Origin: a virus
Taxonomy: Duplodnaviria > Heunggongvirae > Uroviricota > Caudoviricetes
Direction: 5' to 3' (one strand)
DNA: 33,896 nucleotides
IMG/VR virus record: IMGVR_UViG_2548876958_000018
Numbering within the stretch: the first letter of the stretch is position 1; each line of letters begins with the position of its first letter. Positions 4,166 to 33,896 of this stretch are shown in pieces. Below the pieces are notes generated by a model. It was not told the origin of the DNA and did no database searches. It saw only the letters and a program-made list of their open reading frames with translations. The position numbers were made by a program, and so were the translations under genes.

Positions 4166-6427
4166 AGCCTCCGGGCGTTTTGTCCCTCCGTCAGCATTTG
4201 CCGCAGGCACCGGTAAGACGTTTACCGGTGCTTATGCATGGAACGCGCCACGCGAGGCCGTCGGGCGCGAAAGACCCCTTACACGTGACGAGATGCGTCA
4301 GGTGCAAGGTGTTTTATCCACGATTAACCGCCTGCCTTACTTTTTGCGCTCGCTGTTTACTTCACGCTATGACTACATCCGGCGCAATAAAAGCCCGGTG
4401 CACGGGTTTTATTTCCTCACATCCACTTTTCAGCGTCGTTTATGGCCGCGCATTGAGCGTGTGAATCAGCGCCATGAAATGAACACCGACGCGTCGTTGC
4501 TGTTTCTGGCAGAGCGTGATCACTATGCGCGCCTGCCGGGAATGAATGACAAGGAGCTGAAAAAGTTTGCCGCCCGTATCTCATCGCAGCTTTTCATGAT
4601 GTATGAGGAACTCAGCGATGCCTGGGTGGATGCGCATGGCGAGAAAGAATCACTGTTTACGGATGAGGCTCAGGATCACCTGTATGGTCATGTTGCTGGC
4701 GCTGCACGAGCTTTCAATATTTCCCCTCTCTACTGGAAAAAATACCGTAAAAGACAGATGACCACGAGGCAGGCATATTCTGCCATTGCCCGTCTGTTTA
4801 ACGATGAGTGGTGGACTCATCAGCTTAAAGGCCAGCGTATGCGCTGGCATGAAGCGTTACTGATAGCTGTCGGGGAGGTCAATAAAGACCGTTCTCCTTA
4901 TGCCAGTAAACACGCCATTCGTGATGTGCGTGCGCGCCGCCAGGCAAATCTGGAATTTCTTAAATCGTGTGACCTTGAAAACAGGGAAACCGGCGAGCGC
5001 ATCGACCTTATCAGTAAGGTGATGGGCAGTATTTCTAATCCTGAAATTCGCCGGATGGAGCTGATGAACACCATTGCCGGTATTGAGCGTTACGCCGCTG
5101 CAGAGGGTGATGTGGGGATGTTTATCACGCTGACCGCGCCGTCAAAGTATCACCCGACACGTCAGGTAGGAAAAGGCGAAAGTAAAACCGTGCAGCTTAA
5201 TCACGGCTGGAACGATGAGGCATTTAATCCAAAGGATGCGCAGCGTTATCTCTGCCGTATCTGGAGCCTGATGCGCACGGCATTCAAGGATAATGATTTA
5301 CAGGTCTACGGTTTGCGTGTCGTCGAGCCACACCACGACGGAACGCCGCACTGGCATATGATGCTTTTTTGTAATTCACGCCAGCGTAACCAGATTATCG
5401 AAATCATGCGTCGCTATGCGCTCAAAGAGGATGGCGACGAAAGAGGAGCCGCGCGAAACCGTTTTCAGGCAAAACACCTTAACCGGGGCGGTGCTGCGGG
5501 ATATATCGCGAAATACATTTCAAAAAACATCGACGGCTATGCACTGGATGGTCAGCTCGATAACGACACCGGCAGGCCGCTGAAAGACACTGCAGCGGCT
5601 GTTACCGCATGGGCGTCAACGTGGCGCATCCCGCAATTTAAAACGGTTGGCCTGCCGACAATGGGGGCTTACCGTGAACTACGCAAATTGCCGCGCGGCG
5701 TCAGCATTGCTGATGAGTTTGACGAGCGCGTCGAGGCTGCACGCGCCGCCGCAGACAGTGGTGATTTTGCGTTGTATATCAGCGCGCAGGGTGGGGCACA
5801 AATGTCCCGCGCGATTGTCAGACTGTCAGAGTCGCCCGTAGCCCGTCGGATGAAGTTAACGAGTACGAGGAAGAAGTCGAGAGAGTGGTCGGCATTTACG
5901 CGCCGCATCTCGGCGCGCGTCATATTCATATCACCAGAACGACGGACTGGCGCATTGTGCCGAAAGTGCCGGTCGTTGAGCCTTTGACTTTAAAAAGCGG
6001 CATCGCCGCGCCTCGGAGTCCTGTCAATAACTGTGGAAAGCTCACCGGTAGTGATGTTTCGTTACCGGCTCCCACACCTTCTGAGCACGCCGCCGCAGTG
6101 CTTAATCTGGTTGATGACGGTGTTATCGAATGGAATGACCAGGAGGTCGTGAGGGCGCTCAGGGGCGCATTAAAACACGACCTGAGAACACCAAACCGTC
6201 AGCAAAGAAGCGGAAGCCCGTTAAAACCGCATGAAATAGCGCCATCGGCCAGACTGACCCGGTCGGAACGAATGCAAATTACCCGTATCCGCGTTGACCT
6301 TGCTCAGAACGGTATCAGGCCGCAGCGATGGGAGCTTGAGGCGCTGGCGCGTGGGGCAACTGTAAATTACGACGGGAGAAGCTTCAGTTATCCTGTTATA
6401 TGTGATTGGAGAGCGTATGAATTATGA
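4155..6427 (+). pseudogene. A: rolling-circle replication initiator A (HUH endonuclease), interrupted by a -1 frameshift
   Basis: ATG at 4155 overlaps the upstream stop (ATGGCCGTTAA). HUH-type motif TPHWHMMLF and catalytic tyrosine motif GYIAKYISK are present. The reading frame switches between 5765 and 5987: the upstream frame runs to a stop at 5987, while the downstream frame (GTG 5885..6427) is open from 5765. Combined length of about 757 codons is close to P2 gpA (761 aa, from memory). Confidence 0.8.
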
Positions 6428-6482
6428 GATTGTGATAAAAAGTAAATAATTAATATAATGCAATTGCTTAACTGTTTTAAAA

Positions 6483-6513
6483 GGGACAACGTAGTTGTGA
6501 ACTATATTGTCCC
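6483..6513. terminator. hairpin between convergent A and endonuclease genes (possible bidirectional terminator)
   Basis: GGGACAA (6483..6489) pairs with TTGTCCC (6507..6513) across a 17-nt loop in an AT-rich spacer; no clean U-run, so weak. Confidence 0.25.
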
Positions 6514-6520
6514 GGGAGTA

Positions 6521-7576
6521 TTAATTTTTAAATATGGATTGTATGTATTCTATAGTGCTATCTTTAGCTCTGATGTCTTTTAAAGTGTTATTTATGAAAT
6601 CTATTATTCTGTCATTACTTAATAGTGGCGATAACGCATAACATGTTGTTGTGAATGTCATGACGTCACTAAAGCTTAGTGAAACACCTTTTGTCGCAGC
6701 GTTCTCAATCGCAAGAGACTCATCAATATCTAAGTTTGTTGCTCTTGGCCCTTTAAGGAAGATAACTTTTGAAATCCCGGATGCAGATGCTTTTGAAACG
6801 GCGTGATTAACATCTTGATAATTAAATGGTTTGTCTTTCACTTCTATAGAAAGGAAAACTATATCATCATGATATACATCTATGTCCAGTATCTCTTTTG
6901 AGGAGCTACCGGCCTGATTGACGGGATGTGCTTTTATTATCCATCCTCTTTGTTCACCTAATAAATGTAACGAAATTGCGGCAGCAATCGCGCATGTTTC
7001 TCCATCACAAGGATGAGATATAATATTATAAATAATCTTATGGAAATCAAAATTAATTGAGTTCGGCGTTATAACTCTATTGGTTCGCTGTAGGGTAAAA
7101 TATAATGCAATAACAAGCATTTCATAAGCTAAGGTTTGGGTTGTTGCTGCATGTAATATATCAATTGAAAGTTGTTGTAAAACCTTATCATTTCCTCTGC
7201 GCACAGGGTTATCAGAGGAGTGGAGCATGTAACGAGCTGGTTTATTTAGAAATGGCTCATTTGATGCGCCTAACTTACCCTCTAAAAATGGGCCTTCTAC
7301 TTTGCCTACTATTACCGAATGACATAAACTCCTTGCATCATAGGCTCCGTCTACGGGGGCATTAGCTTGTAAAGCCAGAGGGTTAACTCTAGGGTCTGTT
7401 GCTTTTGCAAGTAAACCAGTAATAAGTATATATCTGTATGTAAGGTGGGTGCCTAAAATTACATTTTGAATGGAGACCCATTGATTATTTGTTTTGTAAT
7501 CAGTTAATTTTTTTGCATCGTTGATTGCATTTATAATTACATTATAGGCTTGCTCATGATTTACTAATACTTTCAT
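6521..7576 (-). CDS. putative Type II restriction endonuclease (351 aa)
   Basis: AT-rich ORF directly downstream of, and overlapping by 23 bp, the HTH controller gene; divergent from the methyltransferase; PD-(D/E)xK-like signature DIDVYHDDIVFLSIEVKDK; RBS AAGGA 5 nt before the ATG. Confidence 0.6.
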   Translation of the reverse strand: MKVLVNHEQAYNVIINAINDAKKLTDYKTNNQWVSIQNVILGTHLTYRYILITGLLAKATDPRVNPLALQANAPVDGAYDARSLCHSVIVGKVEGPFLEGKLGASNEPFLNKPARYMLHSSDNPVRRGNDKVLQQLSIDILHAATTQTLAYEMLVIALYFTLQRTNRVITPNSINFDFHKIIYNIISHPCDGETCAIAAAISLHLLGEQRGWIIKAHPVNQAGSSSKEILDIDVYHDDIVFLSIEVKDKPFNYQDVNHAVSKASASGISKVIFLKGPRATNLDIDESLAIENAATKGVSLSFSDVMTFTTTCYALSPLLSNDRIIDFINNTLKDIRAKDSTIEYIQSIFKN

Positions 7577-7868
7577 AGGTGTCCTTTAGTAAGATATCCA
7601 TTGGTAGACCTAATCGGCTTGCAACCACCTCTAATAATTCAAATAGTTCTAAAGCATCTAATCGCCTTTCAAAGCTTTCGATTTTAGATATATCTGATTG
7701 TGATAATCCTAGAAAAATGGCCAATTCTGACTGCGAAAGAGAAGCTTCTTTGCGTAGTTTGGTGAGAAGCTGGACTAGGCACCTGTATCTATGATCATGT
7801 ATAGTTGGTTGTCGTTTTGCCATGTGGTTTAGAAGGTGATTGATTGTGTGTCGATCCTTACCTATCAT
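7554..7868 (-). CDS. controller (C) protein of the R-M system, XRE-family HTH
   Basis: 104-aa ORF with helix-turn-helix segment LSQSELAIFLGLSQSDISKIE; sits in the gap between divergent R and M genes, upstream of and overlapping R; alternative start at Met16 (7823). Confidence 0.65.
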   Translation of the reverse strand: MIGKDRHTINHLLNHMAKRQPTIHDHRYRCLVQLLTKLRKEASLSQSELAIFLGLSQSDISKIESFERRLDALELFELLEVVASRLGLPMDILLKDTYESISKS

Positions 7869-7873
7869 TGGTT

Positions 7874-7892
7874 TTATTCCAAAATCGAATAA
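7874..7892. promoter_or_regulatory. candidate operator (C-box-like inverted repeat) between controller and methyltransferase starts
   Basis: TTATTC-N7-GAATAA dyad at 7874..7892, immediately upstream of the controller start (7868) and before the methyltransferase GTG (7907). Confidence 0.3.
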
Positions 7893-7906
7893 TTGGTGCT
7901 AAAGAA

Positions 7907-8998
7907 GTGAACAAAATTTCAGCGGTGAGCTTATTTACTGGGGCAGGAGGGATGGATGTCGGTTTCTCTAATGCCGGGTTCCGAACAGTTTGGGCCAATG
8001 ATATAGATAAGGATGCATGTGATACATTTAAGCTTAATCATGAATCACCTGTTTTTTGTGGTGATATTGATGAGATGCTAAGTGAATTGTCTGGGCTGAA
8101 AAATATAGGTTGTGTTTTTGGTGGGCCTCCATGCCAAGGATTTTCTGTGGCAGGGAAAATGGACGCTCATGATCCACGTAGTAAGCTGGTTATGTCATTC
8201 ATGCGGGCGGTGGATATAATTCAACCAGAATGCTTTGTTATGGAGAATGTTAAGGCTTTAGCACAGTTGTCCAAATTTGAACCAGTTAGGTGTGAACTGT
8301 TTAAGATGGCTGAAAAGTCAGGCTATCGTTCAGCCTTGCTGGTGCTGAATTCTAAAGATTTTGGCGTTCCTCAGAATAGGGAACGTATGTTTTTTATAGG
8401 GTTTCGTTCCGAAAATGATGTGAAACGAGTTGAGGCGGCGATAAAAAAATACCAATATCTTTCGCCAACAGTTGGTGAGATTATTCGGCCTTTAGGGCGA
8501 GCGGGTAATCCAAATAATTCAAGAGTCTGTAATGCAAGGATTACAAATGCTGCTAAGCCAGTATTACGGAAGTCACCTTACGCGGGAATGATGTTTAACG
8601 GGCAGGGAAGACCAATTAACCCGAATGGGTATGCTTCAACTATAGCTGCTTCTATGGGGGGGAATAGGACACCAATTATTGATGAAGAACACCTTTATGA
8701 TGGCTCAACAAGTTATGTTGAGACTTATCATAATCATCTAATGAATGGTGGTGAGCCAAAAGATATGCACGATGTACCTAGTCGTTTACGTCGACTAACG
8801 ATAGATGAGGCTCTTTTGATTCAAACATTCCCGAGTAATTATGTCTTTGTGGGGAAAAATTCGTCAATTTGGCGTCAGATAGGGAATGCTGTGCCTTGTA
8901 AATTGGCGCAGGCTGTTGCTGCAGGGGTTTTGGATGTCCTTACTGGTAAAACTATTAATGTTCAAAAGAGTCAAACAGAGTTGAGTTTGAATTCGTAA
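7907..8998 (+). CDS. DNA (cytosine-5)-methyltransferase
   Basis: Motif I LFTGAGGMDVGF, motif IV GPPCQGFS, motif VI ENV, motif VIII QNRERMFFIG. Start taken as the in-frame GTG at 7907, which leaves a 330-bp gap to the R start; the track's TTG at 7844 (RBS-like AAGGTG 5 nt upstream) is an alternative that would overlap the controller gene. Confidence 0.9.
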   Translation: MNKISAVSLFTGAGGMDVGFSNAGFRTVWANDIDKDACDTFKLNHESPVFCGDIDEMLSELSGLKNIGCVFGGPPCQGFSVAGKMDAHDPRSKLVMSFMRAVDIIQPECFVMENVKALAQLSKFEPVRCELFKMAEKSGYRSALLVLNSKDFGVPQNRERMFFIGFRSENDVKRVEAAIKKYQYLSPTVGEIIRPLGRAGNPNNSRVCNARITNAAKPVLRKSPYAGMMFNGQGRPINPNGYASTIAASMGGNRTPIIDEEHLYDGSTSYVETYHNHLMNGGEPKDMHDVPSRLRRLTIDEALLIQTFPSNYVFVGKNSSIWRQIGNAVPCKLAQAVAAGVLDVLTGKTINVQKSQTELSLNS

Positions 8999-9154
8999 AA
9001 CGGATCACATTTTCAAACCGATGGATGCAGAATTTAACATTGCTGCATGAGTTTGCATCTTGAAATCATAAGCTGTACTGCTTAGCTTGACCAGAATTGA
9101 TGTGGGTAAGAAGTGGTTATGCACCCGCATTAAAACCGCCCCATTAAGCGGGCG

Positions 9155-15870: not shown

Positions 15871-16152
15871 ATGACAGCAGAAGAAAAAAGCGTCCTGTCG
15901 CTTTTCATGATTGGGGTGCTGATTGTTGTCGGCAAGGTGCTTGCCGGTGGTGAACCCATCACCCCGCGTCTGTTTATCGGGCGCATGTTGCTCGGTGGTT
16001 TTGTCTCGATGGTTGCCGGTGTTGTTCTGGTGCAGTTTCCTGACCTGTCACTGCCTGCAGTGTGCGGCATCGGCTCCATGCTGGGTATCGCCGGTTATCA
16101 GGTGATTGAGATTGCCATTCAGCGCCGCTTTAAGGGCAGGGGGAAACCGTAA
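15871..16152 (+). CDS. Y: holin (93 aa)
   Basis: 93-aa protein with hydrophobic membrane segments, immediately upstream of the endolysin. Confidence 0.75.
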   Translation: MTAEEKSVLSLFMIGVLIVVGKVLAGGEPITPRLFIGRMLLGGFVSMVAGVVLVQFPDLSLPAVCGIGSMLGIAGYQVIEIAIQRRFKGRGKP

Positions 16153-16649
16153 TGCCGGTAATTAACACGCATCAGAATATCGCCGCCTTTCTCGACATGC
16201 TGGCGGTATCCGAAGGGACGGCGAATCATCCGCTGACGAAAAACCGTGGCTATGACGTGATAGTCACCGGACTGGACGGGAAGCCGGAAATTTTCACCGA
16301 CTACAGTGACCACCCGTTCGCGCATGGCCGACCGGCGAAGGTCTTTAACCGTCGCGGTGAAAAGTCCACGGCATCCGGTCGCTATCAGCAGCTTTACCTG
16401 TTCTGGCCGCACTACCGCAAACAGCTTGCCCTGCCGGATTTCAGTCCGTTGTCACAGGACAGGCTCGCCATTCAGTTGATCCGCGAACGCGGTGCACTGG
16501 ATGACATCCGGGCGGGACGCATTGAGCGCGCTATTTCACGCTGTCGCAATATCTGGGCGTCCCTGCCGGGAGCCGGTTACGGTCAGCGTGAGCATTCACT
16601 GGAAAAACTGGTCACCGTCTGGCGTACCGCTGGCGGCGTACCGGCTTAA
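16152..16649 (+). CDS. K: endolysin (165 aa)
   Basis: 165-aa soluble protein between the holin and the lysis accessory genes; P2 gpK position. Confidence 0.8.
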   Translation: MPVINTHQNIAAFLDMLAVSEGTANHPLTKNRGYDVIVTGLDGKPEIFTDYSDHPFAHGRPAKVFNRRGEKSTASGRYQQLYLFWPHYRKQLALPDFSPLSQDRLAIQLIRERGALDDIRAGRIERAISRCRNIWASLPGAGYGQREHSLEKLVTVWRTAGGVPA

Positions 16650-16663
16650 ACGGAGTAAACACC

Positions 16664-17089
16664 ATGAAGAAATTATCCCTTTCACTGATGCTGAACGTGT
16701 CGCTGGCGCTGATGCTGGCACTGTCCCTGATTTACCCGCAGAGCGTGGCCGTCAATTTTGTCGCTGCCTGGGCGATTCTGGCGACGGTTATCTGTGTGGT
16801 TGACGGTGGTGTCGGCGTGTATGCCACTGAGTATGTGCTGGAACGCTACGGGCGGGAGCTGCCGCCGGAATCGCTGGCCGTGAAGATTGTCACGGCGCTG
16901 TTTTTGCAGCCGGTGCCGTGGCGCAGACGGGCGGCGGCTCTGGTGGTGATGGTGGCGACGTTTATCGCGCTGGTCGCTGCCGGGTGGATTTTTACCGCGC
17001 TGATTTATCTCGTGGCGTCGCTGTTTTTCCGGCTGATACGCACGGCCTGCCGTCAGCGTCTTGAGGGGCGGGAACTATGTCAAAGCTGA
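16664..17089 (+). CDS. lysA: lysis timing membrane protein LysA-like (141 aa)
   Basis: multi-TM 141-aa protein downstream of the endolysin. Confidence 0.6.
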   Translation: MKKLSLSLMLNVSLALMLALSLIYPQSVAVNFVAAWAILATVICVVDGGVGVYATEYVLERYGRELPPESLAVKIVTALFLQPVPWRRRAAALVVMVATFIALVAAGWIFTALIYLVASLFFRLIRTACRQRLEGRELCQS

Positions 17090-17520
17090 TGATTGCACTG
17101 GTCGTGTTGTTATCGCTGGCGGTGGCGGGGCTGTTTCTGGCGAAGCATGAAAACGCCAGACTGCGCGCCTCACTGGACAGGGCGAACAACGTCGCCAGCG
17201 GGCAGCAGACGACCATCACCATGCTGAAAAATCAGCTTCATGTTGCCCTCACCAGAGCAGACAAAAACGAGCTGGCGCAGGTGGTACTGCGTCAGGAACT
17301 GGAGAACGCCGCGAAGCGTGAAGCACAGCGCGAGAAAACCATCACGAGGTTACTTAATGAAAACGAAGATTTTCGCCGCTGGTACGGCGCTGACCTGCCT
17401 GATGCTGTGCGCCGGTTGCACCAGCGCCCCGCCTGCACCGACGCCAGTGATTGTCCACAACGCCTGCCCAAAAGTGAGTCTTTGCCCGATGCCGGGCAGC
17501 GACCCGGAGACGAACGGTGA
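17077..17520 (+). CDS. lysB: inner-membrane spanin subunit (LysB / Rz-like)
   Basis: N-terminal TM helix followed by a charged coiled-coil-like region; contains the embedded lipoprotein gene in another frame. Confidence 0.65.
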   Translation: MSKLMIALVVLLSLAVAGLFLAKHENARLRASLDRANNVASGQQTTITMLKNQLHVALTRADKNELAQVVLRQELENAAKREAQREKTITRLLNENEDFRRWYGADLPDAVRRLHQRPACTDASDCPQRLPKSESLPDAGQRPGDER

Positions 17521-17647
17521 TTTAAGTGCCGATATCCGGCAGCTTGAGAACGCGCTGGCGCGCTGTGCCAGCCAGGTAAAAATGATTAAACACTGTCAGG
17601 ACGAAAACGATGCTCAAACCCGACAGCCTGCGCAGGGCGCTGACTGA
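17357..17647 (+). CDS. lysC: outer-membrane lipoprotein spanin subunit (LysC / Rz1-like), embedded in lysB
   Basis: ATG at 17357 in the +1 frame of lysB; signal peptide with lipobox LCAGC; Pro-rich; 96 aa; extends past the lysB stop into the R start. Confidence 0.6.
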   Translation: MKTKIFAAGTALTCLMLCAGCTSAPPAPTPVIVHNACPKVSLCPMPGSDPETNGDLSADIRQLENALARCASQVKMIKHCQDENDAQTRQPAQGAD

Positions 17648-18077
17648 TGCCGTCACGGTGCTGAAAACTAACCCCGATATGCTGCGGATATTCGTGGATC
17701 ACGGGAGTATTGCCTCCACGCTGGCGGCGTCGTTGTCATTCGAAAAGCGTTACACGCTCAATGTCATTGTGACCGACTTTACCGGTGATTTTGACCTGCT
17801 CATCGTGCCGGTGCTGGCGTGGCTGCGGGTAAATCAGCCCGACATCATGACCACCGACGCAGGTCAGAAAAAGGGCTTCACGTTTTATGCAGACATCAAC
17901 AATGACAGCAGCTTTGATATCAGCATCAGCCTGATGCTGACCGAGCGAACGCTGGTCAGTGAGGTGGACGGCGCACTGCATGTGAAGAATATCCCGGAAC
18001 CTCCGCCGCCGGAGCCGGTCACCCGCCCGGTGGAGCTTTATATCAATGGCGAACTGGTGAGTAAGTGGGATGAATGA
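17610..18077 (+). CDS. R: tail completion protein R (155 aa)
   Basis: 155-aa ORF; size and order match P2 gpR. Confidence 0.7.
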   Translation: MLKPDSLRRALTDAVTVLKTNPDMLRIFVDHGSIASTLAASLSFEKRYTLNVIVTDFTGDFDLLIVPVLAWLRVNQPDIMTTDAGQKKGFTFYADINNDSSFDISISLMLTERTLVSEVDGALHVKNIPEPPPPEPVTRPVELYINGELVSKWDE

Positions 18078-18522
18078 GTTTAAGCGTTTTGAAGACCGGC
18101 TGACCGGGCTGATTGAATCGCTGTCACCGTCAGGGCGTCGGCGACTGAGCGCCGAACTGGCGAAACGTCTGCGTCAGAGTCAGCAGCGTCGGGTGATGGC
18201 ACAGAAAGCCCCGGACGGCACACCCTACGCGCCACGTCAGCAGCAGAGCGCCAGAAAAAAGACCGGTCGCGTTAAGCGAAAAATGTTTGCGAAACTTATC
18301 ACCAGTCGTTTTTTGCATATCCGCGCCAGCCCGGAACAGGCATCAATGGAATTTTACGGCGGGAAGTCGCCGAAAATCGCCAGTGTGCATCAGTTCGGTC
18401 TGTCGGAAGAAACCCGGAAAGACGGTAAGAAAATTGATTATCCGGCGCGTCCTCTGCTCGGCTTTACCGGTGAGGATGTGCAGATGATTGAAGAGATTAT
18501 CCTGGCTCACCTTGAGCGTTAG
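18070..18522 (+). CDS. S: tail completion protein S (150 aa)
   Basis: 150-aa ORF overlapping the R stop; size and order match P2 gpS. Confidence 0.7.
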   Translation: MNEFKRFEDRLTGLIESLSPSGRRRLSAELAKRLRQSQQRRVMAQKAPDGTPYAPRQQQSARKKTGRVKRKMFAKLITSRFLHIRASPEQASMEFYGGKSPKIASVHQFGLSEETRKDGKKIDYPARPLLGFTGEDVQMIEEIILAHLER

Positions 18523-18593: not shown

Positions 18594-19379
18594 TTATGAG
18601 TGATTTTTATTTGATGCTTTGTATTCTACAACCTTCTTATTGGCGTAAAGGAATTTTGTATATGACAGGAATATAACCAGACCTGAAATGAAATAGATGA
18701 GGGATATTATTAATAATGCTTTTTTTTGGCTGTTATTATCTTTAATCTCCTGACTTAACCATTCCGAGTCCTCCTCGTTTAGCTGTAAGAGCTTATTGCA
18801 GGCGATCTCAGGAAGTGTGTCTTTTATAAATACGTTTCGTAGCCTCTTGCAATCGGCAAGGCTATAAGTTTTATTGAATTCAACTGTTTTATTGTTGAAG
18901 GATAAAAGAACTTTGTCACTATAAACATAGTACATCATATTTTTATATGGTATGCCTATGGCATCTCTTACTATAACGGATTGTTTGTTGTGTATATAAC
19001 ATGCGAAGAGAATATAAATAATGCTGGACAGAATTACAATTATTGTTTTAATTATGTGTGGTGGTTTTGTTATGTCACCCCAGAAGCGAGTAAGAAAAAA
19101 ATACGATGTTTTTAGTTTTCCATCAATCAGCCCCTGCTGTATCATTCTCACATCTTCGATGCCTGATACATTGATTCCGTTAATTATTTTAAATAGTTGA
19201 ATGTCGCGCCATTTTTTGTCGAGCATTTTTAACTTTCTGTCTGAATACTCAAAATTGAAATGATGTGCAATAAACCTCATAAGATTACTTTTACCAAAGG
19301 TAATAAATGTTAATGCTATTAATAAAAATAGATACAAAGAGATAAACCACCACGCATTAGTCACATTATCACTGAACAT
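18594..19379 (-). CDS. AT-rich moron: 261-aa membrane protein with three predicted TM helices, unknown function (P2 orf30 position)
   Basis: Antisense to the flanking tail operon; strongly AT-rich unlike neighbours; hydrophobic segments near residues 10-28, 112-130 and 221-240; no recognisable catalytic motif. Confidence 0.7.
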   Translation of the reverse strand: MFSDNVTNAWWFISLYLFLLIALTFITFGKSNLMRFIAHHFNFEYSDRKLKMLDKKWRDIQLFKIINGINVSGIEDVRMIQQGLIDGKLKTSYFFLTRFWGDITKPPHIIKTIIVILSSIIYILFACYIHNKQSVIVRDAIGIPYKNMMYYVYSDKVLLSFNNKTVEFNKTYSLADCKRLRNVFIKDTLPEIACNKLLQLNEEDSEWLSQEIKDNNSQKKALLIISLIYFISGLVIFLSYTKFLYANKKVVEYKASNKNHS

Positions 19380-21888: not shown

Positions 21889-23988
21889 ATGAGCACAAAA
21901 TTCAGAACCGTTATCACCACTGCTGGTGCAGCAAAGCTGGCAGCGGCAACCGCGCCGGGAGGGCGGAAGGTCAACATTACCACGATGGCCGTCGGGGATG
22001 GCGGTGGTAAATTGCCTGTCCCGGATGCCGGACAGACCGGGCTTATCCACGAAGTCTGGCGACATGCGCTGAACAAAATCAGCCAGGACAAACGAAACAG
22101 TAATTATATTATCGCAGAGCTGGTTATTCCGCCGGAGGTGGGCGGTTTCTGGATGCGTGAGCTTGGCCTGTACGATGATGCTGGAACGTTAATTGCCGTG
22201 GCGAACATGGCTGAAAGTTATAAGCCAGCTCTTGCCGAAGGCTCAGGGCGTTCGCAGACCTGCCGCATGGTCATCATCGTCAGCAGTGTGGCCTCAGTGG
22301 CGCTGACCATTGACACCACAACGGTGATGGCAACGCAGGATTACGTTGATGACAAAATTGCAGAACATGAACAGTCACGACGTCACCCGGACGCCTCGCT
22401 GACCGCCAAAGGTTTTACTCAGTTAAGCAGTGCGACCAACAGCACGTCTGAAACACTCGCCGCAACACCAAAAGCGGTAAAAGCAGCATATGACCTTGCT
22501 AACGGGAAATACACTGCACAGGACGCCACCACCGCGCGAAAAGGCCTTGTCCAGCTCAGTAGCGCCACCAACAGCGATTCTGAAACGCTTGCGGCAACGC
22601 CAAAGGCGGTTAAGACAGCGTATGACCTTGCTAACGGGAAATACACTGCACAGGATGCCACCACAGCGCGAAAAGGTCTTGTCCAGCTCAGTAGCGCCAC
22701 CAACAGTGATTCTGAAACGCTGGCTGCAACACCAAAAGCGGTGAAGTCTGCCTATGACAATGCTGAAAAACGTCTTCAGAAAGATCAGAACGGCGCGGAT
22801 ATTCCTGATAAAGATCGCTTCCTGAGTAACATTAATGTTTACAGCAAAGGCGAGGTGGATAAGAAAAAAGGAATGCGGCTGTACGTATTTAACGCGCCGT
22901 CTAATGCTGTTGGTGGAAAGTGGTATCCAGTTATTTTCCGGCGTTCCACTGGTAGCACTGGCGAACTGGCTTCCAGAGTGGTTATTACAACCACATCTGC
23001 CGGTGGTGATTACGCAATGAATAACTGCGAATTTAATGGAATGGTAATGCCCGGAGGTTGGACTGATCGTGGTTCATATGCAGCAGGTTATTTTTCGACA
23101 TATCAGACTAATGAGCGCGCAATCCATTCCATTGTAACAAGCCTGAAAGAAGATGATGTATGCAGCGTTTTTTACGTTGAAGGCAGGGCTTTTCCTGTGC
23201 GAGTTTTTGCCGAAGAAGGGCTAACGGTTATTGTTCCAACTCAGGATTATACCGTCGGTCAAACAACATATAAGTGGGGAGCAACTAATCCCGCGACAGA
23301 AAGCACGAACGCACAAGCCATTCTGGATTTTAACAATGGGCGAGGGTTTTATTGTTCTCACTCAATATTCGGTATTAATGCCATTTTTAGCGGAAATCTG
23401 GGGATTGGAACGGCTAATGCCCTGGGTGGAAATTCAATAGTTTTAGGAGATAACGATACCGGGTTTAAACAAAATGGTGATGGGGTGCTGGATGCTTATG
23501 CTAATGGTGTGCATGTATTCCGCTTTATAAATGGTTCAGCAAGATCATTAAAGGGTATTCAGGCTGGGGAAAGTAAGTTCTTCACACTTTCAAGTGCAAA
23601 TACCGCTGCCCGTAATGCATCATTTAACTTGTGGGGAAATTCGTCAAGACCAACTGTTGCAGAGCTTGGTGATGATTCAGGCTGGCATTTCTATAGTCAG
23701 CGAAATACAGATAACTCGGTGATATTTGCTGTAAACGGTCAGATACAACCAAGCAACTGGGATAACATTGATTCCCGATATGTGAAAGATGTTCGGCTTG
23801 GCTCACAGCAATATTATGGTGTGAACAACTGGCAAACATGGAACTTTCAGTGCCCTTCAGGTCATGTATTGTCTGGTATAAATGTTCAGGATACAGGTTC
23901 CAACTCCGCCGATAATATTGCGGGTGTTTATTACAGACCCGTTCAAAAGTATATAAATGGCACATGGTATAATGTAGCGAGCGTTTAA
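21889..23988 (+). CDS. H: tail fiber protein (699 aa), mosaic with internal tandem repeats
   Basis: Large ORF after I; N-terminal part GC-rich like the rest of the phage, C-terminal about 1.2 kb AT-rich with a Gly/Asn/Ser-rich distal domain; followed by the fiber assembly gene. Confidence 0.85.
22423..22758 (+). repeat. in-frame tandem repeat inside H: 132-bp unit, about 2.5 copies
   Basis: 44-aa unit LSSATNS(T/D)[12 protein letters not shown](A/T)[23 protein letters not shown] repeated from 22423, 22555 and 22687, with a few substitutions. Confidence 0.8.
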
Positions 23989-24517: not shown

Positions 24518-24738
24518 GTTGTATAAGCTCTGGTGTGAGATTACATATCTATGGCACAGAGTAAAGCCTAATCTGACAGGCCGCTCTGTGTCTGGAGTAG
24601 ATTTTAGTAAAGCATTATTTTATTAGTGCAAATTCTAAACAATACATTTTATGTATATGATATCCTGCGGACTTTAATGATTTGGTTTAGGCTAACCAGA
24701 TAACACTGAAGGAATATTTTTGATAATTAAGGTGCGGT

Positions 24739-25332
24739 ATGTTTACTAAGCGACGATTAAAAAATATTAACTGGGAGGCAAGTTCAGTGATTCTTGCTAT
24801 GGTTCTCTTTGCTGGAAATATATTTTATACAAATCATCGTGATGATATAAGCATGGAGGCTGAGAGAGACAGTATCAGAACAATGTTTGCATATGAAATC
24901 GCTAATAACCATCGCGCTCTCACCTTTCTTGATAAAACGAGAAATATTGGCTTTGACGAAAATTCGGAGCATTTTGTTGGCGAGCCTTTTGCCATTAATG
25001 TCAAATCATCAGGGGGACCTCGCTTACAGATTGCATTAAACCAGACTGATAAAGTGTTTAAATCATACTTCAGCGAATTAAGTAAGCTTGATAAAGAGGA
25101 TGTTACTCTTCTTATGGACTATTACCATGAGCAAAGCATCCTGCTGGAGCGTGTAAAATCTACGTTACAGAAGATGAAAAGTGGTAATGATATTAAAGTT
25201 GATATTGATGGTTACTTATTAGAAGAACACTTCATGAATGAGCTTAATCTTTCTAATATTTTGCTTAAACGCTATAGCTATTTATTATCACAGCACGCTA
25301 AAGAACATAAAACAAAAGATTTACATAATTGA
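24739..25332 (+). CDS. AT-rich moron: 197-aa protein with one N-terminal TM anchor, unknown function (P2 Z/fun position)
   Basis: Preceded by a 220-bp AT-rich spacer; N-terminal hydrophobic segment SSVILAMVLFAGNIFY, then a charged, probably helical domain; lies between G and FI. Confidence 0.7.
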   Translation: MFTKRRLKNINWEASSVILAMVLFAGNIFYTNHRDDISMEAERDSIRTMFAYEIANNHRALTFLDKTRNIGFDENSEHFVGEPFAINVKSSGGPRLQIALNQTDKVFKSYFSELSKLDKEDVTLLMDYYHEQSILLERVKSTLQKMKSGNDIKVDIDGYLLEEHFMNELNLSNILLKRYSYLLSQHAKEHKTKDLHN

Positions 25333-25539
25333 TAATCTGCTAATGGTTATTCATGGGGTAACTATGTTTTATATGTAATCCAGCTCAGATGAATTATTGA
25401 TTCTGGATAATAACCGCAGAGCGGCATATACCCTGACAGGCAAATGTCCGCTTCTTGCTCAAAGCAGACTGTCAGATTTGATAACTTTTGGGCTATGTAA
25501 ACTGTCAGTCGGAAAATGAGTGTGTACAAATCAGGACAG

Positions 25540-32390: not shown

Positions 32391-32450
32391 ACACAGGCTA
32401 AGGAGGTGGTTCCTGGTACAGCTAGCATTTTATGGGTTATGTTTTTCAGC
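32364..32450 (-). ncRNA. cyaR: CyaR (RyeE) Hfq-dependent small RNA
   Basis: Minus-strand sequence GCTGAAAAACATAACCCATAAAATGCTAGCTGTACCAGGAACCACCTCCTTAGCCTGTGTAATCTCCCTTACACGGGCTTATTTTTT matches the CyaR sequence as I recall it, including the terminator hairpin and U-tail; adjacent to yegQ as in E. coli. Confidence 0.85.
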
Positions 32451-32534
32451 GAAACGGATGATAACCTTAATAAATGCAGCTGTATGTGATCGGTTTCTAA
32501 GAATTTTCCATCCGGGAAAAATAATCGAAATTAA

Positions 32535-33896
32535 TCACTTACCGTGGGGATTACGCGTGGTTTCCCCGGAGAAATTACGCATCAGCAGCGCGTAATTGAG
32601 CTCAAGATCCTGCGGGACCGGGAGCCACACAGTATAACCATCGCCTGGTGCTATCGGCATAGCTTCGCCTTTGGCGTTTTCCATGTGCTCAAGGGTAAAA
32701 TTAATGTTGCCTTGCGGCGTCATCAGCTCAAGGCTGTCGCCAACGGAGAATTTATTTTTCACCGCTACCGCCGCGAGGTCCCCCTTGCGCTCACCGGTAA
32801 ACTCACCAACAAACTGCTGGCGGTCAGAAACTGAATAACCGTATTCGTAGTTCTGATAATCGTCGTGAGTATGACGACGCAGGAAACCTTCGGTATAGCC
32901 ACGATGCGCCAGACCTTCCAGAGTTTCCAGCAGGCTGGTATCGAACGGTTTTCCCGCAGCGGCGTCATCGATAGCTTTGCGGTAAACCTGTGCGGTGCGT
33001 GCACAATAGTAGAAAGATTTGGTACGACCTTCGATTTTCAGCGAATGCACGCCCATTTTGGTCAGGCGTTCTACATGGGCGATGGCGCGCAGATCTTTCG
33101 AGTTCATGATGTAAGTGCCGTGCTCATCTTCAAACGCGGTCATATACTCGCCCGGACGCTGGGCCTCTTCGATCATAAACACTTTGTCGGTTGGTGCGCC
33201 GATACCCAGCGTCGGCTCAACATTTTGCACCGGAATCGGCTCGTACTTGTGTACGATGTTGCCAACATCATCTTCTTTCCCTTCCTGGACGTTGTACTCC
33301 CAGCGGCAGGCGTTGGTGCAGGTGCCCTGGTTCGGGTCGCGCTTGTTGATATAGCCAGAGAGCAGGCAGCGACCGGAGTAGGCCATGCACAGCGCGCCGT
33401 GAACGAAGATCTCGATCTCCATATCCGGCACCTGATTGCGGATCTCTTCAATCTCTTCCAGCGACAGCTCGCGAGAGAGGATCACGCGGGTCAGGCCCAT
33501 TTGCTGCCAGAATTTCACCGTCGCCCAGTTCACGGCGTTAGCCTGCACCGAAAGGTGGATCGGCATTTCAGGGAAGTGCTCACGCACCAGCATAATCAGC
33601 CCTGGATCGGACATAATCAGCGCATCCGGCCCCATTTCCACCACCGGTTTCAGGTCACGGATAAAGGTTTTCAGCTTGGCGTTGTGCGGTGCAATGTTGA
33701 CCACGACATAAAACTTTTTCCCCAGCGCGTGGGCTTCATTGATGCCGAGCTGAAGATTTTCGTGGTTGAATTCGTTGTTGCGCACACGCAGGGAATAACG
33801 CGGCTGGCCCGCATAAACAGCATCTGCGCCATAAGCGAAAGCGTAACGCATATTTTTCAGCGTTCCCGCCGGGGAAAGGAGTTCCGGTTTAAACAT
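32535..33896 (-). CDS. yegQ: U32-family peptidase YegQ (453 aa), host gene
   Basis: Complete 453-aa ORF starting with ATG at the window edge (MFKPELLSPAGTLKNMRYAFAYGADAVYAGQPRYSLR...); GC-typical host codon usage; next to cyaR. Confidence 0.85.
   Translation of the reverse strand: MFKPELLSPAGTLKNMRYAFAYGADAVYAGQPRYSLRVRNNEFNHENLQLGINEAHALGKKFYVVVNIAPHNAKLKTFIRDLKPVVEMGPDALIMSDPGLIMLVREHFPEMPIHLSVQANAVNWATVKFWQQMGLTRVILSRELSLEEIEEIRNQVPDMEIEIFVHGALCMAYSGRCLLSGYINKRDPNQGTCTNACRWEYNVQEGKEDDVGNIVHKYEPIPVQNVEPTLGIGAPTDKVFMIEEAQRPGEYMTAFEDEHGTYIMNSKDLRAIAHVERLTKMGVHSLKIEGRTKSFYYCARTAQVYRKAIDDAAAGKPFDTSLLETLEGLAHRGYTEGFLRRHTHDDYQNYEYGYSVSDRQQFVGEFTGERKGDLAAVAVKNKFSVGDSLELMTPQGNINFTLEHMENAKGEAMPIAPGDGYTVWLPVPQDLELNYALLMRNFSGETTRNPHGK

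Follow-up and report, generated by a model that had tools for sequence, protein, structure and literature searches.

At the end of the lysis cassette of the virus considered here, a short reading frame with the features of a lipoprotein gene starts inside one gene and ends inside the next. The locus raises the question whether this frame, lysC, is a gene at all and, if so, where it begins, what its product does together with that of lysB, the gene in which it starts, and to which class of gene architecture the two belong. In the following, the window denotes the whole stretch of DNA that was analysed, 33,896 nucleotides of a virus of the Caudoviricetes (IMG/VR record IMGVR_UViG_2548876958_000018). 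With a probability of about 95%, lysB and lysC form a two-component spanin of a P2-like (Peduovirus) prophage with an 'overlapped' gene architecture, an assignment made from sequence. The features of the locus are, in order of position:

15871-16152, plus strand: Y holin (PF04550 holin, 2.6e-42; phrog_175)
16152-16649, plus strand: K endolysin (phrog_90)
16664-17089, plus strand: lysA (phrog_162; P2 annotation)
17077..17520, plus strand: lysB, predicted i-spanin (inner-membrane subunit), ATG to TGA, 147 aa
17086..17142, plus strand: LysB transmembrane anchor from hydropathy, codons 4-22, LMIALVVLLSLAVAGLFLA
17346..17349, plus strand: GAGG, Shine-Dalgarno sequence of lysC, within lysB and 7 nt 5' of the lysC ATG
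17357..17647, plus strand: lysC, predicted o-spanin (outer-membrane lipoprotein precursor), ATG to TGA, 96 aa
17357..17416, plus strand: predicted LysC signal peptide, residues 1-20, an MKTK n-region followed by a hydrophobic core
17357..17520, plus strand: dual-coding segment of 164 nt, in which frame 1 gives the C-terminus of LysB and frame 2 the N-terminus of LysC
17405..17419, plus strand: predicted lipobox L-C-A-G-C, LysC residues 17-21, with Cys21 at 17417-17419, followed by Thr22
17500..17502, plus strand: CGA, LysB Arg142, where P2 has a TGA stop (alignments, mutation scan)
17521..17609, plus strand: lysC-only stretch of 89 nt, from the lysB stop to the R start
17610..17647, plus strand: lysC/R overlap of 38 nt, encoding the LysC C-terminal tail and the R N-terminus in different frames
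17610..18077, plus strand: R, tail completion/terminator protein (PF06891 P2_Phage_GpR, 2.2e-44)

Y holin, K endolysin and lysA are located directly upstream of lysB and lysC, with lysA overlapping the start of lysB by 13 nt, and the neighbours of the pair are assigned to the holin, endolysin, gpR and gpS families of P2. The frame of lysC is +1 relative to lysB, i.e. shifted one base to the right. The first-pass annotation of this DNA had placed lysC in a different frame starting inside lysB, at coordinates that the sequence and open reading frames of 16200-18300 show to be exact to the base, and had described it as running past the lysB stop into R. It does so: the overlap of 164 nt with lysB makes up 56% of lysC, and 127 of its 291 nt (44%) lie beyond the lysB stop, comprising 89 nt on their own and a further 38 nt within R. 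The latter gene (ATG at 17610) is read in the third frame; it is the downstream neighbour of the spanin pair and no part of the spanin.

The open +1 frame was considered as proof of lysC and dropped after a simulation in which lysB was recoded synonymously, since the frame remained free of stop codons over the overlap in 93% of the trials. A spacer of 89 nt stayed open in 23% of the trials, and a shuffled segment of 288 nt in 3.8%. The first two figures favour a reading of lysC as an incidental open frame and not a gene, which persists since the sequences of LysB and R seldom give rise to stops in the +1 frame. The pattern of conservation argues against it. We compared 33 related loci: 15 come from phage records and 16 from prophages found by scanning bacterial genomes, to which P2 and the window are added. 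They cover the genera Escherichia, Salmonella, Yersinia, Klebsiella, Erwinia, Kosakonia, Kluyvera, Pluralibacter, Burkholderia, Pseudomonas and Aeromonas. In 33 of 33 loci the o-spanin gene is found in the +1 frame, overlaps the i-spanin gene by 146-176 nt, and has its start at the homologous position. Within a panel of 17 sequences in which R was located (the window and 16 phage loci), the gene extends past the i-spanin stop to the annotated starts of R. The identity of LysC among the 33 loci decreases to about 35%, and over this range the signal peptide is retained and ten residues are invariant (M1, G9, L15, C21, C37, C43, L56, A66, C70 and Q81), four of them cysteines.

The distribution of nucleotide diversity (pi) was analysed in 23 distinct sequences from enterobacteria, aligned without gaps. 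In DNA that belongs to lysB only, pi has its peak at lysB codon position 3 (0.51, compared to 0.29 and 0.33 at the other positions). Within the lysB/lysC overlap it is lowered at all three phases (0.10, 0.17 and 0.24), and in the 89 nt that belong to lysC only it is highest at lysC codon position 3 (0.44, versus 0.21 and 0.13). The lysC/R overlap tracks the frame of R, with a pi of 0.41 at R position 3, and DNA coding for R only behaves likewise. Hence the 3-base periodicity of diversity changes its frame at each gene boundary. The counts of variable sites follow the same pattern: 75 of 146 sites vary in the overlap compared to 200 of 240 in lysB-only DNA (p = 4e-11), and at lysB position 3 the fraction falls from 79/80 to 29/49 (p = 3e-9), such that the wobble freedom of lysB is lost exactly at the start of lysC. 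In the lysC-only stretch, which is free of other genes, 27 of 30 sites at position 3 are variable but only 25 of 59 at the other two positions (Fisher p = 1e-5). Both frames are constrained in the overlap and are therefore under purifying selection; together with the switching periodicity this identifies lysC as a real gene under selection. A mutation scan found no single-base nonsense mutation of lysC within the overlap that is silent in lysB. LysC also matches curated models far above their cut-offs, namely NF038368 P2_Rz1 ('Rz1-like lysis system protein LysC'; 8.9e-38, 128.4 bits, cut-off 27) and Pfam PF23793 LysC (2.3e-17, 63.1 bits, cut-off 27). We therefore regard an incidental origin of the frame as practically negligible. 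The locus serves as a clear illustration of dual coding, in which periodicity switches at the boundaries and collapses inside the overlap.

The start of lysC is annotated differently in other records, and the true o-spanin could be either shorter (52 aa, from Met45 at 17489) or longer (135 aa, from an ATG at 17240) than the 96 aa given here. The shorter form corresponds to the 159-nt 'Rz1/o-spanin' that is annotated from the internal ATG in P24E6b, SEN1 and Midge; MLG42 and ST512-KPC3phi13.2 likewise carry shortened coding sequences, though from other internal starts, and the family phrog_952 covers only residues 36-96 of LysC. A protein of this kind would have neither signal peptide nor lipobox and could not get to the outer membrane, and conservation extends over the 44 residues that it leaves out, among them the invariant C21, C37 and C43. 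The longer form draws on the window itself, in which the frame is open back to 17228. A start at ATG 17240 is excluded in the relatives, because a stop codon directly precedes the conserved ATG in Wphi, P24E6b and several other, distant relatives; it would also put the signal peptide behind 39 charged residues. Two further observations favour 17357 over either alternative, namely the Shine-Dalgarno sequence 7 nt upstream of it, with a purine-rich counterpart (GAGG, GAGGA or AGAGG) at the equivalent place in the lysC homologues, and the mature Wphi o-spanin of 76 aa (Kongari et al., PMC6139136), which implies cleavage at Cys21. Both alternative starts are extremely unlikely. Among the phage records inspected, two have no lysC annotated, and in five the 'Rz1/LysC' coding sequence is shortened to 48-57 aa and has no signal peptide. 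The practical value of the locus is thus one of annotation: overlapped o-spanin genes are still often missed or shortened.

A different role for the 3' part of lysC is suggested by the P2 record, which lists a 'putative transcription attenuator' at 8399-8417, inside lysC. The matching segment of the window, 17554-17572, can form an 8-bp hairpin, and the region might accordingly be mainly a regulatory RNA, an attenuator that tunes the tail genes R and S, with coding as its secondary function. However, no T-run follows the stem at 17554-17572, and a terminator scan made no call there. The fold of the surrounding 81 nt is no better than that of shuffled sequences (z = 0.26; 114 of 200 shuffles at least as good), and the stretch has the protein-coding periodicity of the lysC frame. 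A mainly regulatory function is therefore very unlikely.

The product of lysB consists of an N-terminal transmembrane helix, a long helical domain that is predicted to be periplasmic, and a disordered C-terminal tail. The highest 19-residue Kyte-Doolittle mean (2.86) is found at residues 4-22, and a single-sequence AF2 model has a helix over residues 2-115 with a mean pLDDT of 77. The predicted topology is N-in, C-out. Two cysteines, C120 and C126, are located in the predicted periplasmic part. LysB matches the NCBIfam equivalog TIGR03495 phage_LysB ('Rz-like lysis system protein LysB') with 2.7e-49 and 166.9 bits (cut-off 92.75), as well as phrog_89, an Rz-like spanin family (5.6e-60). The Pfam scan of LysB (E <= 0.01) returned DUF5937 alone, below threshold. 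LysC matches phrog_456 (1.2e-31), and both proteins are placed in PHROG spanin families; the PHROG match to a second spanin family, phrog_214, is weak (1.9e-4). The C-terminus of LysB differs in length among the related loci, as the stop codon has moved (137-155 aa), with LysC untouched.

LysC begins with MKTKIFAAGTALTCLMLCAGC, and the residues after Cys21 are TSAPPAPTPVIV…. The LCAGC lipobox that the first-pass annotation had pointed out is present at residues 17-21, in a non-canonical form: position -3 is Cys18, giving the tetrad CAGC. Since -3 is a cysteine, LysC matches neither the strict consensus [LVI][ASTVI][GAS]C (DOLOP-type) nor PROSITE PS00013-like and G+LPP-like lipobox patterns. 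The tetrads in the 33 loci are CAGC (21 loci), LSGC (6), LCAC (3), CVGC (2) and LAGC (1). Cys21 is invariant in all of them and lines up with the canonical lipoboxes (LSGC and LAGC) that distant homologues have. Because of this conservation and alignment the lipoprotein assignment is kept despite the mismatch to the consensus, and Cys21 is the predicted acylated residue of LysC. Judged from the alignment, a lipobox is predicted family-wide at this position, with a variant form in the P2/186 branch. Other o-spanin lipoboxes outside the consensus, one of them validated, have been documented by Kongari et al. (PMC6139136).

The cysteine at -3 (CAGC or CVGC) is kept in the enterobacterial P2/186 branch, whereas the tetrad of distant relatives is canonical (LSGC or LAGC). 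The nucleotides of the lipobox also encode a conserved motif of LysB, …VRRLHQ…, which probably limits the choice of lipobox residues. More economically, Cys18 can be read as just the residue that the overlapping frame of LysB permits. It is very unlikely that Cys18 has a function of its own, for example in processing by SPII and Lgt and thereby in the timing of lysis, or that the lysC hairpin at 17554-17572 attenuates transcription of R and S. Either would add an extra regulatory layer to a textbook locus, and attenuation by the hairpin would couple the dosage of lysis genes and tail genes.

The predicted mature LysC has 76 aa. Outer-membrane sorting by the Lol system requires that the residue at +2 is not Asp. 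The residue at this position is Thr in LysC, and T, G, N, S, I or A, never D, over the 33 loci. The protein had been described as Pro-rich. This holds for the linker after Cys21, with 8 prolines among the first 30 mature residues, but less so for the mature protein overall (9 of 76 residues, 12%). The C-terminal half is helical over residues 56-88 in a single-sequence AF2 model, with low confidence (mean pLDDT 51). The mature part contains four further cysteines, C37, C43, C70 and C80, the first three of which are invariant. LysB thereby contributes two and mature LysC four predicted periplasmic cysteines, which would be on hand for intermolecular disulfides.

The window is a P2-like prophage. 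Its bases 476-32390 align to the whole of P2 (NC_001895) with about 97% nucleotide identity; the alignment is permuted at attP, as expected of an integrated copy, and host DNA is found on both flanks. In the P2 record, lysB is located at 7922-8347 and lysC at 8202-8492. Both phages share the gene order Y, K, lysA, lysB, lysC, R, S, the +1 frame, a LysC of 96 aa and a lysC/R overlap of 38 nt, and the proteins are 94% (LysB) and 96% (LysC) identical. Apart from a few amino-acid substitutions in LysB and LysC, the difference is in the length of LysB, which has 141 aa in P2 and 147 aa here, with an overlap between lysB and lysC of 146 nt and 164 nt, respectively. The six additional codons are due to a single C/T difference at 17500, which is synonymous in lysC (AGC/AGT, Ser48). 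The Peduovirus P24E6b also has the 147-aa form of LysB, and the LysB homologue of Wphi is identical at 131 of 141 residues.

The same 571 bp are found in 1604 of 5426 complete E. coli genomes (about 30%), in which PGAP labels lysB and lysC, and relatives of LysC occur in 277 phage records. The pair is an ordinary, already known and characterised P2 pair with curated family models. That it is known biology had been said from the outset, and this is borne out; the locus is of little research interest of its own. The P2 record describes lysB and lysC as 'nonessential; affects timing of lysis', and a mild loss-of-function phenotype is therefore expected in ordinary laboratory culture. The defect of spanin mutants is mild in shaken laboratory cultures, which the entry in the P2 record fits.

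The mechanism that we propose follows established spanin biology. As the sequence shows, lysC is translated in the +1 frame from its own Shine-Dalgarno sequence and ATG inside lysB. By analogy with established spanin work (PMC6139136), LysB would be an inner-membrane protein of type II whose C-terminal domain is periplasmic. Processing of LysC would, as is established for other o-spanins, comprise cleavage by signal peptidase II and acylation of Cys21, and the Lol system would bring the protein to the outer membrane, into its inner leaflet. The periplasmic domains of both proteins may then bind each other to form a bridge that is threaded through the peptidoglycan mesh, as indicated for lambda by experiments on Rz/Rz1. 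When the wall has been degraded by the K endolysin that the Y holin releases, the LysB/LysC complexes would be freed, and the freed complex would merge the inner membrane with the outer one, as described for spanins (PMC6139136). As lysis by the phage ends, the LysB/LysC bridge would break the outer membrane.

The remaining question is the class of gene architecture. The overlapped class is reportedly also credited to Summer 2007, and Markov et al. 2004 is said to be the primary lysC paper. Two-component spanins have been divided into three classes (Kongari et al. 2018, PMC6139136): embedded, with the o-spanin gene wholly within the i-spanin gene as in lambda Rz/Rz1; overlapped, with the o-spanin gene extending past the i-spanin stop, for which P2 is the named prototype; and separated, with genes that do not overlap, as in T4. 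P2 is the experimentally tested overlapped system, and the 15 members of the P2 o-spanin family are all overlapped (PMC6139136). For example, lysB and lysC of Wphi are overlapped in the +1 frame by 146 nt, and code for a mature o-spanin of 76 aa and for an i-spanin whose periplasmic domain is 74% helix with two coiled-coil segments (PMC6139136). The P2 layout has been set 'in contrast' to that of lambda: lysC starts in the +1 frame inside lysB, and its stop is within R in another frame (PMC3091744).

By this definition lysB and lysC of the window are overlapped, with a +1 frame, 164 nt shared and 127 nt beyond the stop. The first-pass annotation had instead labelled the architecture nested or embedded, i.e. 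a pair of the lambda type in which the lipoprotein gene is entirely inside the i-spanin gene. Like Rz1 in Rz, lysC indeed starts inside lysB in the +1 frame; its stop at 17647, however, is 127 nt past that of lysB at 17520, such that just 56% of the gene is inside, and all 33 relatives share this layout, which by definition is the overlapped one, exemplified by P2 (PMC6139136). We also note that no match of LysB or LysC to the lambda Rz or Rz1 Pfam families was found in the Pfam scan (E <= 0.01), in which LysC matched PF23793 LysC alone. The embedded label is contradicted by the description it came with, since that description itself has lysC passing the lysB stop into R, and we give a lambda-type embedded pair next to no weight. 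The earlier interpretation is therefore partly supported. It is right in substance, in that LysB and LysC are a Rz/Rz1-like pair of an inner-membrane protein and a predicted lipoprotein, and wrong in the architecture label.

The comparison with lambda shows likenesses at several levels. Each pair combines a type II inner-membrane protein, whose periplasmic domain is helical, with a small outer-membrane lipoprotein rich in proline (predicted for LysB and LysC); the lipoprotein gene has its start within the first gene and is read in the +1 frame. Each pair also closes its lysis cassette, and the mechanism is presumed to be the same. They differ in that Rz1 does not leave Rz at all, whereas 127 nt of lysC lie past the end of lysB, and the gene reaches into its downstream neighbour. 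Mature Rz1 has about 40 aa and is largely unstructured, whereas mature LysC has 76 aa, a predicted helical C-terminal half and four further cysteines. LysB and LysC are functional analogues of Rz and Rz1, with a relationship in sequence that is not demonstrable. PseT.3/PseT.2 of T4 (separated) and gp11 of T1 (unimolecular) share with the pair the disruption of the outer membrane via a periplasm-spanning link with a lipoprotein anchor (PMC6139136). The spanin genes of T4, however, do not overlap, and in T1 a single protein carries both anchors.

A group of observations concerns how the gene for the o-spanin lipoprotein, lysC, is annotated in public phage records. Five of these (P24E6b, SEN1, Midge, MLG42 and ST512-KPC3phi13.2) carry a truncated CDS named Rz1, LysC or o-spanin, which begins at an internal start and encodes only 48-57 aa. 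The start used in three of the five is Met45, an internal methionine downstream of the lipobox, and the truncated annotations lack both the signal peptide and the lipobox. The coordinates of these CDSs, by locus, are:

L002, 2390-2548
L004 and L006, 1033-1191
L009, 1018-1191
L016, 1045-1191

In two further records, Cartapus and LPM4 (loci L010 and L014), lysC is not annotated at all. The full-length lysC frame is intact in all seven. The family phrog_952, which spans 62 positions, appears to have been built from truncated o-spanin entries of this kind.

The length of the partner protein, the i-spanin LysB, is set by a single C/T polymorphism at position 17500 of the window: TGA ends the protein at 141 aa, whereas CGA extends it to 147 aa. 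P2 and Wphi have TGA at the matching site (141 aa), while P24E6b has CGA as in the window (147 aa). The change is silent in lysC. Among the relatives the LysB C-terminus shifts with its stop codon, giving proteins of 137 to 155 aa; the length of LysC is constant at 96 aa in most enterobacterial relatives. Also inside lysC lies the counterpart of a feature of the P2 record:

17554-17572, counterpart of the "putative transcription attenuator" (P2 8399-8417)

This segment forms an 8-bp hairpin, GCTGGCGC-GCT-GTGCCAGC; it has no T-run, is not picked up by the terminator scan, and the fold z-score of the region is 0.26.

An assembly labelled Vagococcus sp. WN89Y contains two P2-like lysB/lysC loci, with LysC identities of 82% and 72%:

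L020, NZ_JBQPOM010000032.1
L031, NZ_JBQPOM010000054.1

Vagococcus is a Gram-positive genus without an outer membrane, and the presence of such loci under its name therefore suggests that the assembly is contaminated or mislabelled. A Phormidium tenue contig (L034) gives a weak, partial LysC match (43% over residues 14-66).

Comparison with P2 delimits the prophage and its host flanks:

1-475 and 32391-33896, host flanks
~476 and ~32390, att core junctions (P2 coordinates 24355 and 24382)
32535-33896, minus strand, peptidase U32 family protein (PF01136 at 5e-89)

The peptidase ORF comprises 453 aa and ends at the last base of the window. Within the prophage, the slot of the P2 tin/old accessory genes (window 6397-9126) is occupied by a type II restriction-modification system:

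6521-7576, minus strand, SacI-family endonuclease (PF09566 at 1.9e-76; PADLOC REase_II at 2e-252)
7554-7868, minus strand, small HTH controller protein
7844-8998, plus strand, C5 cytosine methyltransferase (PF00145 at 1.3e-66)

In the Z/fun slot, about 0.86 kb without P2 match is substituted (24591-25446), containing a single ORF, and an Orf30-like gene lies between the tail gene S and V:

24739-25332, plus strand, 197-aa ORF (sole match phrog_3829, unknown function)
18594-19379, minus strand, Orf30-like gene, 261 aa (phrog_2407, unknown function)

Searches of Pfam and PADLOC gave no match for the former; the Orf30-like protein has no significant match in Pfam, NCBIfam or PADLOC. Its gene, on the opposite strand, is AT-rich (GC 0.33 versus ~0.57 in the surroundings) and harbors a cluster of sigma-70-like promoter matches. 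Finally, the C-terminal part of the tail-fibre gene H (22616-23943) diverges from P2, with patches of 73-86% identity and some stretches without match, whereas the remaining late region is ~97% identical to that of P2.
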